Assembly: GCA_001662655.1 (NCBI GenBank)
Contig: KV460217.1
Source: Pseudogymnoascus verrucosus
Taxonomy: Eukaryota
DNA: 64,000 nt
Reading direction: 5' to 3' (one strand)
Of the stretch, positions 18,643 to 28,018 are shown in pieces; the first letter of the stretch is position 1, and each line of letters opens with the position of its first letter. Position numbers and translations under genes: made by a program. Below the pieces are notes generated by a model that saw only the letters and a list, made by a program, of their open reading frames with translations, did not search any database and had not been told where the DNA came from.

Positions 18643-19120
18643 GCCCTGTGCAGAGCCCTTGGAATTAAACATTCCTATTTCAGATACGGTTGCATTAGGA
18701 CTGGGTCGTTTTGGAGACGGCATACCACGTTTGCGATAGCAACCACCAGAAGCCAGCCCATGGCTTCTCAGACTGCAACGGTGGACTAGCAAACCCCTAT
18801 CAAAATCAGTTCCTGTTCGTTCCCGATTGTCCACTGGTAGAAGCGGTGAGAGTGGCACTCGCGGTTACTTTGGCTGAAGCACATGTCGCTACCGTCGTCG
18901 AGGAAATGATGCGTGACTGCAGGTCTCCAACGTTGCTTGTCGATGGGTCTGGCGTTACCAGGCAACCACAAAAGTCAAAGATTCAAATATCGTGTTAACT
19001 TAAACCTTGCTACGTAAAAGAAGATGGAAAAACAGTCACAAACTACCCCCCACACCTAGAGCATAATGGGCCTAGTTCTCATCGAAGGCGAAAGCCAGAT
19101 CGCCGACATATTACTTTAAA

Positions 19121-20257
19121 CAGCTAATATCATAAATGGGCCTCTTTTTAATTCGAAAATCATAAATAGGCCTCTTTTTATATATAATATCATAAGTAGG
19201 CCTCTTTTTAATACAATATCAGGAATGGGCCTCTTTTTTTCTTATCGCGCACGTGCCTAATTATTCTGCTAGTTATATGACTAAGCATTAGCTGACTTTG
19301 ATTTCCTGCTCTAATTGAAGTTACAAATTTAATTTACATAGCAGACGACTAAGGGTATTATGATGTCCTAGCTATTCCTATGCTCCTAGACTCTCAGACT
19401 CCTAATCCTCTATAAGTTCATCATTTCAATCTTCCTAGATATTCATATCTAGTTATATGCAGGCGTATGCGATGGACAAGCTACATGTCCTTTGCTTAGA
19501 TGGTGACACGCTTAGCGTAAATAGCGGCTAGGTTAGTCACTAGATTGATTACTATAATGTTTACTATACCTTAAATTCATAGTGTAGTATATCTTCCTCC
19601 CCTTCTTCTTAGTCTTTAACAGTCTTGCATTTCAAGACAAATCTCATTGGCTTTAAGGTCTTAGTCTAGTACGATTGCCCGTTGTCTTTAAAAGCAGCTG
19701 TAATAGATAGCTTAGTGTAAGGCGGTCCTTACGTGATAGCACGTAAGGTGCTACGCTAAAGGTAGCCCTACAGTAGAGCTGTCATTTAGGTATAGCCCGG
19801 TTATTAGGGTTCACGGTATAGGAAGATATATTAGGGGCTAGAGCCTTAGGGGAGGACTCTAGTCAATAGTCGCTATATCTACGTAGACCTATTGTGCTTA
19901 CTAAATACGATACCCATCCTGCCTCCTAACCTGGTTCCCTAGACTCCTGTGAGACCCTAGGCTTACGCTTTACACTTAGCTTCTTTCATTAAAGGGAAAA
20001 CATCGCCTATTACTAGAGTAGACATTATACGAGTAAGGATATAGTAATATACGGCTAGGAATACTAAAATATAAAATGTAAATAGAGGCAGTTAGAGTTT
20101 TCACTCGCGTAATATGTTATAGGCGGTGAGCGATAAGAAAAAAAGAGGCCCATTCCTGATATTATATTAAAAAGAGGCCTACTTATGATATTATATATAA
20201 AAAGAGGCCTATTTATGATTTTCGAATTAAAAAGAGGCCCATTTATGATATTAGCTG
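19121..20257. mobile_element. Non-autonomous Mutator-like (MULE) TIR element, 1137 bp
   Basis: ~128-bp near-perfect TIRs, each made of four ~30-bp subrepeats (core GGCCTCTTTTT). 9-bp TSD TACTTTAAA at 19112-19120 and 20258-20266. The interior is TA-rich with no ORF. Confidence 0.92.
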
Positions 20258-20523
20258 TACTTTAAAAGCAGTTAGGTTCTATTTATTATATAAGAGCTAC
20301 TTATAATTATAGTAAGTTATACTACTTATATAGGCTTTAAAGGCACTATGTACATTATTTAGAAATAGATTAATTAAAGTAATAGTAGCTATTTATATAG
20401 GTGTAGGTGTATAATATAAAGCTTTAATATTCTACTCTACTATTCTATCTTCCCTACTCCTTAGTAGGTTAGTAGTTTAGCTAGGTAGTTAGCTAACTAG
20501 AATAGTTAGTAGTTAGGCTAGAA

Positions 20524-20787: not shown

Positions 20788-21297
20788 GGCACATCCCCAA
20801 CCACCTCCCTGATTTTCCATTGGCTGGGGGGCCCGAGCTGGCGAAGCTGGCGTTCCGAATGATATACCAGCGGGATGTACGGCCTGATATTGCTGGTGAC
20901 ATGGTGGTGCGGGATGAATACAAAGGCTGGTTTATAGAAGCTCGACCGATATCGTGAGTGATTTTCTTACGCACTTTCTTTGTCGGAAACATACGCTGAC
21001 ACCCCCTTGTACTGTAGTATGATTGATTACTACGGGGTTACATTCGACCATCTTGTTCAAGCCGATGACACAGATTTAGAAGTACTCCAAATCAATATCG
21101 TTGAGATTGAAGATGATGGCGGCGCTTATGCAAACAAGTATAACCCGTTTGATATAGATCCTGTCGAGTATATTGAGCAAAAAGTGCTTACTGTGCCCAG
21201 GTGCTGCCAGAAACGGAATGGGACCACGGATCAGAGGAGGGTTAATGATGGGGTAAATATCCGGGATGGGAGGGTTGTTCATATGGTTTATAAGTGA
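20788..21297 (+). CDS. Hypothetical protein, probably 5'-truncated
   Basis: Frame ...PDFPLAGGPELAKLAFRMIYQRDVRPD...EARPIS splices (GTGAGT ~20954, TAG ~21018) to MIDYYGVTFDHLV...VPRCCQKR. No in-frame ATG before 20859. Confidence 0.5.
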
Positions 21298-21338
21298 GAT
21301 ACTGCACGTTCATATGGTTTATAAGTGAAATACTGCAC
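21277..21338. repeat. 31-bp tandem duplication over the stop codon of the hypothetical gene
   Basis: GTTCATATGGTTTATAAGTGA(G/A)ATACTGCAC twice. Confidence 0.9.
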
Positions 21339-21411: not shown

Positions 21412-24400
21412 TCAAAGGCGTGGTTCATGATCTGCAGTCTTGAGAAGTAACTCCGCTATATTCCAGTACTTTTTCTCGATGGCGATAGTGAGCGGAGACT
21501 GATTAGTACAATTTCGTGCGCCAATGTCAATGTCGGCCTTGCTAGTTTCAAGCAGTACTCTTACCACCTGCTCATTTCCCCATTTTGCAGCAATGAAGAA
21601 CGCTGTATTAGCCATGACATCCATTGCGTTAGCTTTGATCTTACTATGCTGAAGTAGCATCGCCGCTGGCCCATGCTGAGATTTTGCCGCATATGAGAGC
21701 GCCGTTCTATTGAACGTGTCTTTTGCGTTAACTTCAATCTTACTATGCTTAAGGAGTAGTGCCACTGCTCCCTCACGTCCAAGCCTTGCAGCACACATGA
21801 GCGCTGTTAGGCCCCAATTTTTTTCTGTGTCGCCTTCAGCCTTTCTCGGTTTTGCTTTGATTTTGGCGTTGACGTTAACCTTGCTATGCTGGATCTGGAT
21901 CTGAGAGGGAATTGGAGCATCTCCAATTCCCTCTCAGATCTAAGTTCTACAGCATATATAAGCGTAGGAAATCCGATGGCGTCTCTCCTGTTGACTTGAA
22001 TATCACTGCGTCGAAGTGACAGCTCCACTACAGCCTCGTGTTGCCCTCCGATGGCTAACATAAGCAGCGTCCAATCGTCAAAATCTTGCATATTAACGTC
22101 AATTTCGTTCGAAGTTCTCTGGAACAGGTTTTTAATTGTTCTGTCTGCGGTAGACTGTCTCTCGTTGCTATTAGGATCATTTTGGGGCTTTAGAATCAAC
22201 TGGACAAGCTTAAGAAGTCCGTTCTGTGATGCTATGTGCAAGAGAGTCATGTGTGTCTCTCTATATTGAACCTCCTTGAAGGAAGTGTTTAGGAGCTGCC
22301 CGTAGAGTTGTAGTAGCTCTCCTTGATTGGGATTTATATTTTCTACTATTTTTGCATGGTATGTCCAGTGAAAAGTTGCGTAGCAAAAGAAGGGATGGTC
22401 ATCATCAAAGGCAATGGTGTTTGAAACCGGTCTATGGTTTGTCGTAGTGTCTTGTAGTGCCCGTACAGTATAGTATCTTGCAAGTATTTCCTTTGAAAAC
22501 AAATAATGTATGCAAGACTTTAGTAGCTGTAGATGTACACGGCCAACGAAATCAAGGGCTGAAGGCCCAGAAGTTGGAGCGCCGTCGTCGAGGTACCGCA
22601 GCCCCCTTGAGACTAGGTAGTCGTACACTGATTGGTGTCTTAGATGCACAGTGTGTTCTTCGTCGTGCTTGTTGATTACTACCAAGTTGCACGAAAGCCT
22701 TTTTATCATATTTACCATTTTGTGATGATTTCTTCTGCACTCCACTGACTTCTGCCATACTAGACCAGATGGGTCAAATGCCATTGCATCGTATAGCTCG
22801 TTCACATGTAGAGGTCGCCGGGAAAAACAAATCCAGCGTAGAAGTCGCAGCGATTGTGATCGATAGATTATATCCATTATCTGAAAACTCTTATCATAAA
22901 GGTCGTCGAGTCCTTCAGGGAGATCTCCCAGAAATTCAAGAATGTGTTTTAATGGTGCAAAGCCTTTGATTAAATCTTTAGCCTTCTTAACGACAATAAC
23001 AGCCCATTGAAAAATGCCAGAGGCCATTTCCACAGTCCACTTTATAAGTTCTCGAGCCTCATAGTGCTTTCCATTGATTCTAGCGATTTTGTTCTGCACA
23101 TAAGTCCATATGTCTTGTCGATTTTTGTTCCCAATCGATATTTTGAGACCACCGTTCGCTAAGAAAGGGTAATCTCGGCGGGAGATACAGACATTCAAGC
23201 TAATTCCAAATCTGTCTTGTGATGTCAAGCTTTCGAAGTACTCTGCTAACTCCATAGGTACCTCACCGCCGTTAGGTACGTTGCCGCCGAACTCATCAAG
23301 TGCATCTATGTAAACACGAAGTATGTATTCCTCTGGATATCTCTTTGCGATGTGTAACATAAAATCCTCTAGCATTTCTTTCAGGTCACGTTCATGCCAC
23401 TCCCATTTTATTCCAGGTTCGCCTTGTAACTCGCATCTTTTGTCGAACTCCGAAGTTAAATCAGACGGCCATGTTGGAATCTGTCGTAGGATCTGGTGCA
23501 GCAGAGAGCGAAACAACCCAATGCGGGTTTTCTGAAGAGGGGCACCAGCACTGTAGCAGAAGAAAGAAACCAGAATGATCTTTTTCTGGGCTCGCTGGGG
23601 TGGTCCTTGCTTGTCGACCTTAGTTTCTGTCTGCAAAGTGTCTTGCTCGTATATGTATTTCATAAGCGTCGATTTTCCTGACCCAGGGATCCCAATAATC
23701 CATAGCAGACTTTGGCTTTGCGCAAGCCAGGATTTGTAGTCAGGTTCGTCACATAGCCACTCGCATGTGTCTTCCACAGCTTCTGATATGTCCTTTTTGT
23801 GGTGCTCCATCTCGGGAAAATACAAGGATTGTAGAAGAGCTATAGAGTAAAATCAATATTGAACTGGATATAAAATGCGATTGATTAAGACAAGACATAC
23901 TAATAGAGTTCTGAAAACCGGAAAAGTCTATATAGCATACATTTGTTAAACCAAAACATCGTTCTCATTAAGGTGCGTCCTTACTATGATAATTGAATGC
24001 CCCTGCCCCATTATTATTTAGCTGCGGGCCCTTTCCTGTATTACTGTTCGTGTAAGTGCCTTCTCCAATATTATTATTCGTGACCCTCCTCGCTATGTTA
24101 TTTCCACTTCCCGAGCTGTGCTGAATGATAGATCCACTATCTTCAGGGATCGAAGGAGGCATGTCGAGCATTTCTTGAATCGCCTCTTCAAGTTTCTTAA
24201 TTTCATCCCCAGTCGCCGTTCCCATTAATTTGTCGCACGTCACCAGCTTAATGTGCTCCATAATCTCTCCCATTAATTCCTCTACTCGCTTCCCCTTGCC
24301 TACTGCAGCGACGGCCTTTTTATACCGTTCCAACCGGTTGGCATCTGCATCGGGTAGAACCGCTTTGAATATTTTGTTTAGCGCTTCGACCTTCTCGTGG

Positions 24401-24645
24401 CAGGCCCTGATATTGTTCTCGGCTTCATTCGTTTGCTCGTCATCGAGCTTCGTTGCCTGTCCTTTCTTCTCTGCATTTCGAAGGATCGTAAGCACCAGTG
24501 GAAATTTCGCAGCAATGCTACGAAACTCTTTGGGTAGGCCTTTGGCGTCTTTGTAGGCTGAGTGGAGAGATTTCGTGGATTTGACGATTTCGATTGTTCC
24601 TGTGATGAGGCTAATGATGACCCCAACCTCACCAACGATAGACAT
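21412..24645 (-). CDS. Fungal NLR: SesA (HeLo-like) N-terminal domain, G/N-rich amyloid-like motif, NACHT, ankyrin repeats; frameshifted in the ankyrin region
   Basis: ATG 24645 (MSIVGEVGVIISLITGTI...AYKDAKGLPKEF). Introns 23984-23928 and 23900-23840 around a 27-nt exon join it in frame to LLQSLYFPEM...TCEWL. Walker A GIPGSGKST, Walker B VYIDALDE, ankyrin repeats (TLLHIASQNG, TALSYAA, SPLTIA). Frame break at ~21890-21910. Confidence 0.85.
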
Positions 24646-25602: not shown

Positions 25603-27534
25603 CTAAGAACTACAGCTACACTGCATCCCCCTCCCCTCCCTTGGCACATCTCCCACCCACCTCTCCTCCTCCTCCCGGTCTCCACCCCACGTCTCCTCAA
25701 AGGGGTTCAGCGCCATCTTCATCACGCGCCCCAGTACCTCCCTCTCCCCTTCCTTCTCCACGCGCCGAATAACCTCGTCCAGGATCCACGATCGCGGGAT
25801 GAAATTCGGGTTCACAGCCCTCATAGCCGCTTGCCTCTCCTCCTCCGCCTCCGCTGTAACTTCCTGTGCGGCCCAGTCCTCTACAACTCTCGCACGCCAC
25901 TTATCCAACCACACGCCAACACGCTCCCTCGCCACAGCCTCATCCCCAACCACCCCCTCCTTATGGAAGAACAACCCCGCCTTCTCCTTCCTACCCTCCT
26001 CGGTCTCAATCTCTTTAATGTACACCCCACTCAGCCGGCGGAAGAACTGGTTAAAATCCAGCTTCAGCGCCTCCATCGTATCTAGTAGCTCGCTAAACAG
26101 GGTTTCGAAGTCATCTGGCTTGTGAACCTTGAGTCCCAGGCGCGCAGTCATGAGGCGCTTGTACTCTTCCAGGAATACCGCCTTGTACTCCTCACCCGTA
26201 CGTGTGATGAGCCCCTCGGCGCGCGAGACGAGCTCGTCGGCGTCTTCCTGCCTGACACCTTTTTCGACGAATTCAGCAGCGTCGACGCCAGCGCCAGCGC
26301 CGATTAGCTCGCCGAGGGTTTCGCCCAGGCGCACGAGGTTCCACCAGATGATAGTGGGCTGGTTGCGGTAGGAGTAGCGTAGCATGCCGTCGTCGTGGTT
26401 TGGGGTGTAGTTAGGGTCGAAGGTGTCGAGGAAGGCAAAGGGCCCAAAGTCGAGGGAGAGGCCCATGAGGGATGTGTTGTCAGTGTTGAGGACGCCGTTG
26501 GTGAAGGCGTAAGCTTGCCACGCTGCAACGGTCTTGGCGTTGCGGCGGGTTATTTCGCGGTAGAGTCTGGCGTATCGGTTTTCCTCCAACCCAGACGGAC
26601 CGTCGATTGTGTCTTTTTCAATGGGGGTAGATGGGGGCTCAGCAGTATCTTGCTGGTCGTCTGGGAGGCGAGCGGGAAGGGAGCTCCACCCGCTGAAGAC
26701 ATGCTCGGCGGTGTAGTCGGCGAGCTTGCGGATGAGGTCCCTGTCACCACGGGCGCGGAGGAGATCAAATGTACCGATGCGTAGCCACGATTGTGCAAAC
26801 CGTGTTACGATTGCTCCCGGTTCCGTCCTTTCGCGGCGGACCTTCGAGTGTGGGAGGAGAGTGAGGGACAGGGCACGGGTGGTTGGAATGCGAAGGGCAT
26901 TGAGTGCTTCGGAGACGACGAATTCGCGGATCGATGAGCGCAGGACTGCCTTGCCATCTGCGAAGCGCGAGTATGGCGTCATCCCAGCTCCCTTCAGTTG
27001 TAACTCGTATCTAGTCTTCGTATCAGGGTTTGTCGTCTCGAATAGGGAGATGGCGCGGCCGTCGCCGAGTTGACCGGCCCAGGACCCGAATTGCCAACCT
27101 CCGTAGCATTGTGCCCAGGGGTATCCCCCTTCTTGCTTGTCTTCGTTCCACCCAAGTAGCCTATTACCAGCAACGAGCTGGCGGAACTCTTCTGTCTCTG
27201 CTTCCTCTGGCTTTATCCCCAGGTCTCTTAGTGCCGCGGTGCTAACTCCGAGTAGTTCAGGGTCCACCGCCTCCTCAGGGCGCACCCAAGTAAACAGGGC
27301 ACCTTTGACCATCCGAGGGCCTAGATCATCTCTCGGTGTCTTATGTGATATCGCTGGGCTTGGAAACGCAGAGTCGGCAGGCAGATTGGCCGTAAAGTTC
27401 CATGACTTCCGGAGATCCTTCAGGGCTACGCCTCGGGAGGGGCCACGGGAGGAGGCGCTGCTGGTGATATGGGACGACATCTGCGCGAAACGTGCGCAGG
27501 TGTTCACAGGTCGTATCAATTGTCGGAATAGCAT
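25603..27534 (-). CDS. FMP40: Protein adenylyltransferase SelO / Fmp40 (mitochondrial)
   Basis: YGGWQFGSWAGQLGDGRA, QLKGAGMTPYSRFADGKAVLRSSIRE, GVLNTDN, DFGPF and C-terminal QCSCSS. Arg-rich presequence from M at 27534. Confidence 0.96.
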   Translation of the reverse strand: MLFRQLIRPVNTCARFAQMSSHITSSASSRGPSRGVALKDLRKSWNFTANLPADSAFPSPAISHKTPRDDLGPRMVKGALFTWVRPEEAVDPELLGVSTAALRDLGIKPEEAETEEFRQLVAGNRLLGWNEDKQEGGYPWAQCYGGWQFGSWAGQLGDGRAISLFETTNPDTKTRYELQLKGAGMTPYSRFADGKAVLRSSIREFVVSEALNALRIPTTRALSLTLLPHSKVRRERTEPGAIVTRFAQSWLRIGTFDLLRARGDRDLIRKLADYTAEHVFSGWSSLPARLPDDQQDTAEPPSTPIEKDTIDGPSGLEENRYARLYREITRRNAKTVAAWQAYAFTNGVLNTDNTSLMGLSLDFGPFAFLDTFDPNYTPNHDDGMLRYSYRNQPTIIWWNLVRLGETLGELIGAGAGVDAAEFVEKGVRQEDADELVSRAEGLITRTGEEYKAVFLEEYKRLMTARLGLKVHKPDDFETLFSELLDTMEALKLDFNQFFRRLSGVYIKEIETEEGRKEKAGLFFHKEGVVGDEAVARERVGVWLDKWRARVVEDWAAQEVTAEAEEERQAAMRAVNPNFIPRSWILDEVIRRVEKEGEREVLGRVMKMALNPFEETWGGDREEEERWVGDVPREGRGMQCSCSS

Positions 27535-28018
27535 GCCATATATACCAGTAATATATATGTAAGAAAGCGCTGAATAATGTATGGAGATGAAATAAAGTGC
27601 TGAGGGCGGCGGGAGTGACGTTATGCCGTAGCCGGATAACAAGCCTCAAACGTGGGATTTGTGGCGATAACCGATAAGGAAACAGCTCAAATATAGATCT
27701 CGATTTCTTCAAGTATAATTTTACACAATGCTGGATTCCAGGCTCATTCTAGAGGGGCAAAGTAAATTTCTTCATAGTTCATTCATATCTACCGCTAATT
27801 AATGTAAATTGGACCCTGAAGTCTACGGCAAACCAGTTCCGGTAGGCTCCACCTGTCTACCGACAGTAGTGCAACAGAGCTCGTCATACCCCGCCATTGC
27901 CCCTCAAATATATGTCTACACTTCCCATTTTTAACGCATTCTGTGTGCAATTCCTCGGTATTAAAGCCGAAGCTGCGATAAAGCTACAACAATAATTCTA
28001 TCTTAACAATTTGTCAAC

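Follow-up and report, generated by a model that had tools for sequence, protein, structure and literature searches.

The window, which is the whole analysed stretch of 64,000 nucleotides of Pseudogymnoascus verrucosus DNA (contig KV460217.1), carries on its minus strand a gene that is best explained, with moderate confidence, as a spliced all-in-one NLR, the first exon of which is a shuffled module and the introns of which are removed constitutively. A single SesA(HeLo-like)–sigma-like motif–NACHT–ANK product would be obtained by removal of both short introns (Table 1). The published work is cited by PMC number or DOI.

Table 1. Coordinates of the gene features in the window
Feature	Position	Strand	Characteristics
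Exon 1	23985..24645	(-)	661 nt with a phase-1 end; encodes a hydrophobic helix at the N-terminus, the SesA/HeLo-like helical bundle and the sigma-like motif
SesA domain (PF17107)	24244..24606	(-)	aa 14-134; Pfam E 8.2e-33, 113.6 bits against a cut-off of 26.3
G/N-rich sigma-like motif	23986..24135	(-)	four GxG units at aa 179, 194, 204 and 213
Intron 1	23928..23984	(-)	57 nt (3n), GT-AG, GTAAGG..TAG, phase 1; branch candidate TTTAAC
In-frame stop within intron 1	23970-23968	(-)	TAA, then TGA (two stops in succession)
Micro-exon	23901..23927	(-)	27 nt; also in models P0012 and P0176
Intron 2	23840..23900	(-)	61 nt, GT-AG, GTATGT..TAG
Exon 3	21807..23839	(-)	NACHT followed by a winged helix and the first ankyrin repeats; spliced frame closes at 906 aa
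NPHP3_N (NACHT)	23771-23184	(-)	Pfam E 2e-25
Remaining ankyrin repeats	21412..21933	(-)	Ank_2 E 1e-21; out of frame with exon 3 in the present allele
Perfect 20-nt inverted repeat	21894..21940	(-)	arms 21898-21917 and 21921-21940; a related DNA contig is 20 bases shorter here

With both introns removed at their canonical sites, the predicted splicing brings SesA, motif, NACHT and ANK into one frame, and the spliced model contains Walker A at residue 279 and Walker B at residue 407, which is the effector-NACHT-repeat layout of an all-in-one receptor. These exon and intron boundaries and the in-frame fusion had been proposed in the first-pass annotation, and they are corroborated by two named Pseudogymnoascus proteins, P0012 and P0176, predicted models with 96–99% identity and the identical exon junction. 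A comparable junction is present in P0013, and in P0014 SesA and the same NACHT lie in a single uninterrupted frame with a shortened motif. One ground for the all-in-one reading is this in-frame canonical splicing together with the arrangements found in these four proteins. Counterparts of the micro-exon, 33 nt in length, occur in six related loci. The unspliced frame continues, just as was initially claimed, with SKDAP and a stop to give 225 aa, and the named record P0178 of the P0012/P0176 cluster is annotated as this stand-alone form, which was counted against the all-in-one reading; the fused and the 225-aa annotations within one cluster mean that gene predictors disagree and that all splice models are predictions. 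The gene is flanked by a SelO gene and by an AT-rich repeat region, with no other gene in between, and neither sesB nor a second NLR was detected among the 25 other window frames scanned. In the public model of P0013 the upstream SelO gene (25603-27645 in the window) is merged with the NLR into a protein of 1747 aa, probably an annotation merge, which still shows the conserved gene order.

The SesA domain assigned to exon 1 from its letters was recovered by profile search with PF17107, and residues 3-21 in front of and within it are strongly hydrophobic (mean hydropathy 1.96). The structure of the exon-1 protein was modelled from an alignment of 96 sequences, one of them entered twice, after an earlier 12-sequence model of poor quality (pLDDT 48); the mean pLDDT reached 79.8, with a predicted helical bundle to about residue 161 and a low-confidence tail across the motif. 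The structural matches include the MLKL N-terminal domain (Z 9.7, rmsd 3.4, 132 aligned residues), Rx-CC (Z 9.6) and AtMLKL3 (Z 9.2), while generic bundles score equal or higher, because of which the modelled bundle agrees with the published HeLo-like/MLKL link and falls short of proving it. A Foldseek search gave no match at E up to 0.001 with either structure model.

The sigma motif is described in terms of submotifs A (GxGxQFN) and B, that is, of G/N/Q-rich repeats (PMC3321046), and the third GxG unit of the window motif resembles submotif A with L replacing F. The proposal that the motif is sigma-like was upheld by a home-made profile built from 11 relatives that pass the Pfam cut-off, on which it scores 21.6 bits, a value reached by 0 of 1000 shuffles (hhalign probability 76%), but not by the Pfam profiles themselves, since neither NACHT_sigma (PF17106, at E up to 1) nor Ses_B matched it, and nothing in the whole genome exceeded the cut-off of either. 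From about 100 short matches 50 were selected and scanned, and 9 of these relatives pass the NACHT_sigma cut-off at the equivalent position; the scores of close relatives on the same home-made profile range between 17.8 and -3.4 bits, which indicates that the window clade has a divergent form of the sigma motif. Identity to P0013 is 78% in the motif, 76% in the SesA domain and 61% in NACHT; being as conserved as the effector domain and more conserved than NACHT, the motif is under constraint. When the motif peptide was compared with its own genome, only the motif itself was returned (one candidate scored). At 24030-24070 the window clade and P0001 possess an extra 10-residue repeat unit of the motif relative to P0002-P0008.

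The activity of such a protein can be pictured as follows. Ligand sensed by the ankyrin repeats would cause NACHT oligomerisation, by which the internal G/N-rich motifs would be clustered as an in-cis scaffold, and the clustered motifs would help to free the N-terminal hydrophobic helix of the MLKL-like bundle, with membrane damage as the result. Exon 1 together with intron 1 would act as a portable effector-motif module ahead of varied nucleotide-binding domains, and the stop in intron 1 would mainly route unspliced transcripts to nonsense-mediated decay. Splicing in vivo, decay, the amyloid or scaffold role and killing are thus parts of the picture that we infer, whereas the anatomy of the gene, its domains, the conservation of the motif and the recurring module are shown. 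Amyloid and prion behaviour has been demonstrated for Nectria SesA (10.1101/205690), while in vitro no aggregation was seen for an internal sigma-like peptide taken from a Coleophoma NLR (PMC8086366), a result that makes the amyloid-scaffold step of the all-in-one reading less secure.

The relatives were examined among the best 150 of 1744 representative matches, where 48 proteins exceed 260 aa and 29 of these 48 contain a Walker A motif. In 12 of the 29 the linker is sigma-like, with a score of 12 bits or more on one or other of two home-made profiles (two of the 12 helped to build a profile), and such effector-motif-NBD relatives, named in Botrytis, Scytalidium, Drechslerella, Arthrobotrys, Rasamsonia and Lecanicillium, carry ANK, WD40 or TPR repeats. 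The fusion-type architecture suggested in the first-pass annotation is therefore common among these best matches, and it has already been described: four HeLo-like proteins with sigma in Ascomycota and five BaMLKL-motif-NACHT-TPR proteins in Fibularhizoctonia, with a proposed oligomer scaffold, have the same protein layout as the window gene (PMC9815663).

In its own genome the window gene is one of 12 SesA matches, three of which contain the motif, and in all three a phase-1 donor lies directly behind it, before different NBDs, the partners being NACHT-ANK, NACHT-WD40-like and P-loop NTPase/TPR-like. The donor has the same position in 9 of 10 metagenome loci (two pairs are duplicates, and the tenth locus is without the motif), where the downstream partners are two NACHT types and a C2H2-like gene. 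The same exon 1 and intron ahead of different partners, together with a break of similarity inside the intron of locus L014, look like a shuffled exon module, and the recurrence of the sigma-like linker among relatives and of the module ahead of varied NBDs is the second ground for the all-in-one reading. Motif-less SesA-NACHT genes are also present in this genome; three of them (L022, L023 and L026) are intron-less, and one (L021) has an intron after its N-terminal domain too. Some single loci deserve mention in this connection. At 1849-3260 of L013 a SesA-motif exon is apparently spliced to the C2H2-like zinc-finger gene, and P0014 has a zinc-finger-like region ahead of SesA-NACHT. At 1258-1690 of L014 lies a SesA-motif copy which resembles the clade as far as a point inside intron 1 and is followed about 0.75 kb downstream by a HET-domain frame; possibly it is a stand-alone copy cut at the intron.

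Introns that stay in a transcript usually contain a stop codon, and the ordinary consequence is decay. From base composition alone an in-frame stop is expected in about 73% of such introns, so that the stop of intron 1 by itself is no more than chance, and in Yarrowia in-frame stops in retained introns are the rule, up to 93% (PMC2911113). The pairwise identity of intron 1 in the related clade (0.62–0.92) overlaps with that of four-fold sites (0.61–0.82). The all-in-one reading is favoured, thirdly, because retained-intron stops are expected, because these identities overlap and because no separate sigma-motif NLR was found: a second motif copy is absent from the 64-kb window, and a search within about 1.5 kb upstream of 68 NACHT and 8 NB-ARC matches gave no N-terminal sigma-like motif, the match counts being lower bounds and the profiles narrow.

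The early stop may be given another meaning, in which the locus has a dual output. Splicing would produce the receptor, whereas retention of intron 1 or polyadenylation within it would produce a functional 225-aa SesA-sigma effector, and the internal motif of the activated receptor would template the identical C-terminal motif of the short form, resulting in amyloid amplification with a matched, co-inherited partner. This explanation is considered unlikely, despite the fact that several observations agree with it. In size and layout the short product matches a stand-alone SesA, for which 210 codons are known in Nectria (PMC516043), and its nearest Atlas clusters have lengths of 201-232 aa. The donor position directly behind the motif, described above for the own-genome genes and the metagenome loci, is accompanied by a stop 1–4 free codons past the donor codon in all three intron lineages (chance 0.26 each), and these early stops were counted against the all-in-one reading. 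The search among the NACHT and NB-ARC matches of the genome gave no other sigma-type partner, and plant NLRs do yield N-terminal-domain-only isoforms through intronic polyadenylation (PMC8116057). But the stop lies 2556 nt ahead of the normal end, which makes a transcript with the retained intron a typical target of decay, except if polyadenylation takes place within the intron; the motif-less L021 has its intron in a similar place; and the amyloid nature of the motif is putative. The read-through tail also differs between clades, and its fourth residue varies (A, G, V, T, S) across eight relatives. As a coding signal a conserved SKDAP tail was ruled out, SK being supplied by the donor and the following residues drifting. 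Yeast-type 3'-end elements are present in introns 1-2 (4.9% of 2000 shuffles) and were given no weight, the word list having been chosen post hoc.

Some comparative properties of intron 1 itself bear on this matter. A comparison of seven related loci shows 17 invariant columns among the 28 non-signal ones of intron 1, while of 33 four-fold sites 10 are invariant (Fisher p 0.016), an excess that a purely neutral intron does not predict and that was counted against the all-in-one reading and for the dual output. Around the branch site a 17-base segment (23939-23957) is common to the window gene and the paralog L003, a similarity seen in 52 of 5000 shuffles, although the two genes have only 34% amino acid identity and saturated four-fold sites; the shared pattern, which was built from these two introns, occurs in the genome at those two places only. 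Branch candidates of the form TTRAY are present in 8 of 8 introns; the consensus is CTRAY. Both the segment and the TTRAY candidates may be taken in favour of the dual output, against which it must be set that these hints, the early stops and the conserved columns included, are post hoc, come from about three independent lineages and show little excess in the pairwise test. As comparative evidence they are weak and small, and would fit a regulated decay equally well.

Such regulated unproductive splicing, in which a weak intron 1 would be retained and the transcript directed to nonsense-mediated decay, keeping a toxic NLR low until it is needed and making no short protein, is regarded as distinctly improbable. 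It would cover the non-consensus branch candidates, the excess conservation of the intron and the early stop, all this without a poly(A) site, and retention of a first intron with decay is documented in a yeast (PMC2911113). It gives no reason for the exact coincidence of the donor with the motif's end, and the conservation signal of the intron, on which it draws, is weak.

The donor position has been approached also from the side of protein ends. A GTAAG or GTATG donor is seen in a protein as the dipeptide G/S/R/C-K/M, and this is found in the last seven residues of 25 of 64 short motif-bearing relatives (98 short matches minus 34 without motif) against 7% of control windows; the ends crowd near the dipeptide, 19 of 32 lying within four residues (p 0.006), and annotated stand-alone proteins ending in GKD or GKDD are known in Bipolaris, Stipitochalara and Pseudomassariella. 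These observations would suit a recent fusion or a still separate pair, in which a stand-alone sesA-sigma gene lay or lies upstream of the NLR, its C-terminal G/S-K codons giving the GTAAG donor and its stop and spacer becoming, or resembling, an intron. We hold this to be very unlikely. In six of seven related loci (L002, at 2138-2198, L007, L008, L010, L012 and L013) intron 1 contains an ATG that shares the frame of the next exon, and in L006 it is out of frame, but in the window none of four intron-1 ATGs is in frame, by which an internal ATG restart was ruled out there. Moreover, the distance between the stop and the NACHT exon's first methionine is only some 160 nt, the downstream N-terminus is without the motif copy that two-gene systems require, the GK ends are known at the protein level, and the presence of the layout across several genera argues against a fresh fusion intermediate. 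The short proteins with GK ends may be of two kinds: either many of them are exon-1 read-throughs from intron-blind software, or the conserved end of true effectors can supply the donor and so favour fusion. In loci of the L002 type a transcript that keeps the intron might contain another reading frame, with its start about 14 nt past the effector stop.

It can also be supposed, with much reservation, that the donor and early stop behind the motif mark a whole ascomycete NLR family, in which one locus would encode both a receptor and its amyloid-matched effector and the choice between splicing and polyadenylation would set their ratio. Such a layout would stand between the two-gene and the all-in-one forms, and its donor may have come from the conserved G/S-K end of stand-alone SesA proteins.

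The all-in-one reading can be compared with several known systems. Nectria haematococca's ses locus (SesA, SesB, HET-eN) contains a SesA of similar size followed by G/N/Q-rich repeats, and a NACHT-ankyrin receptor (PMC3321046, PMC516043); there effector and receptor are separate adjacent genes with a motif copy each, whereas here one copy is joined to NACHT by predicted splicing. In the two-gene systems generally (HET-S/NWD2, ses, HELLP/PP) the separate adjacent NLR has an N-terminal motif, and a gene of this type was found neither in the window nor near the NACHT/NB-ARC matches with profiles of limited sensitivity. The all-in-one sesA-NACHT protein NWD3 of Podospora is similar in having a SesA-like domain N-terminal to NACHT and repeats, but in the accessible part of the description NLRs of this type are presented without a retained amyloid motif (PMC3321046), while the window gene keeps one. 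For the short form the closest precedents are truncated plant NLR isoforms, such as TIR-only products of FPA-dependent intronic polyadenylation and intron retention in RPS4 (PMC8116057), which give an N-terminal-domain-only product; these contain no amyloid motif and were shown by RNA data, while the short form of the window gene is predicted from DNA.

Both two-gene and all-in-one forms are treated in the literature (PMC3321046, PMC5485727). In the accessible text of PMC9815663 the words "intron" and "isoform" are absent, and the post-motif intron and a possible short product are undiscussed there. In the literature covered, with subscription papers and supplements outside it, no description was found of a fungal NLR with an isoform releasing an effector-amyloid protein, nor of an intron directly behind the motif with a nearby stop ahead of different NBDs; loci of this kind may be listed in the supplements of PMC9815663. 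As for alternative splicing in fungal NLRs, the accessible parts of these sources show it only for ankyrin mini-exons of Tuber (PMC9815663, PMC12258605, PMC4986451, PMC12881547, PMC13449251, PMC516043). The protein layout is thus already known, and the recurrent intron placement was not found in print.

The short form, if true, would account for the maintenance by selection, in all-in-one fungal NLRs, of an amyloid motif that seems redundant. It would also solve partner matching and co-inheritance by a single gene and offer a definite path by which two-gene and fused architectures could be connected, a point that PMC3321046 leaves unsettled. If it is untrue, the effector-motif exon is still a shuffled module, and annotation pipelines call such loci either way, as 225 aa or as fused, which affects the counts of stand-alone amyloid effectors.

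The designation of the product as a full NLR could not be retained for the present allele. The 20-nt inverted duplication (Table 1) causes a frameshift after the first ankyrin repeats, with which the spliced frame ends, the last repeats following behind it in another frame, so that the C-terminal sensor repeats are not intact. A GT-AG intron of 40-130 nt restoring the frame was searched for around the frameshift and none was found, and the named model P0176 omits this region. The allele may be impaired through the loss of its last ankyrin repeats, or the 20 extra bases may be an assembly error rather than a real frameshift. The model of a related strain, P0012, likewise ends early within this ankyrin region, but at another position, and together with the window it may indicate that C-terminal decay is recurrent while exon 1 remains intact. 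Just past the last ankyrin frame of the NLR lies a tandem 31-nt duplication (21277-21338), which is single copy in the related contig. Further downstream, at 19114-20262, an element of about 1.15 kb adjoins an AT-rich tract; it has 133-nt terminal inverted repeats, 98% complementary and with four 30-nt subrepeats each, and is probably a non-autonomous DNA transposon.
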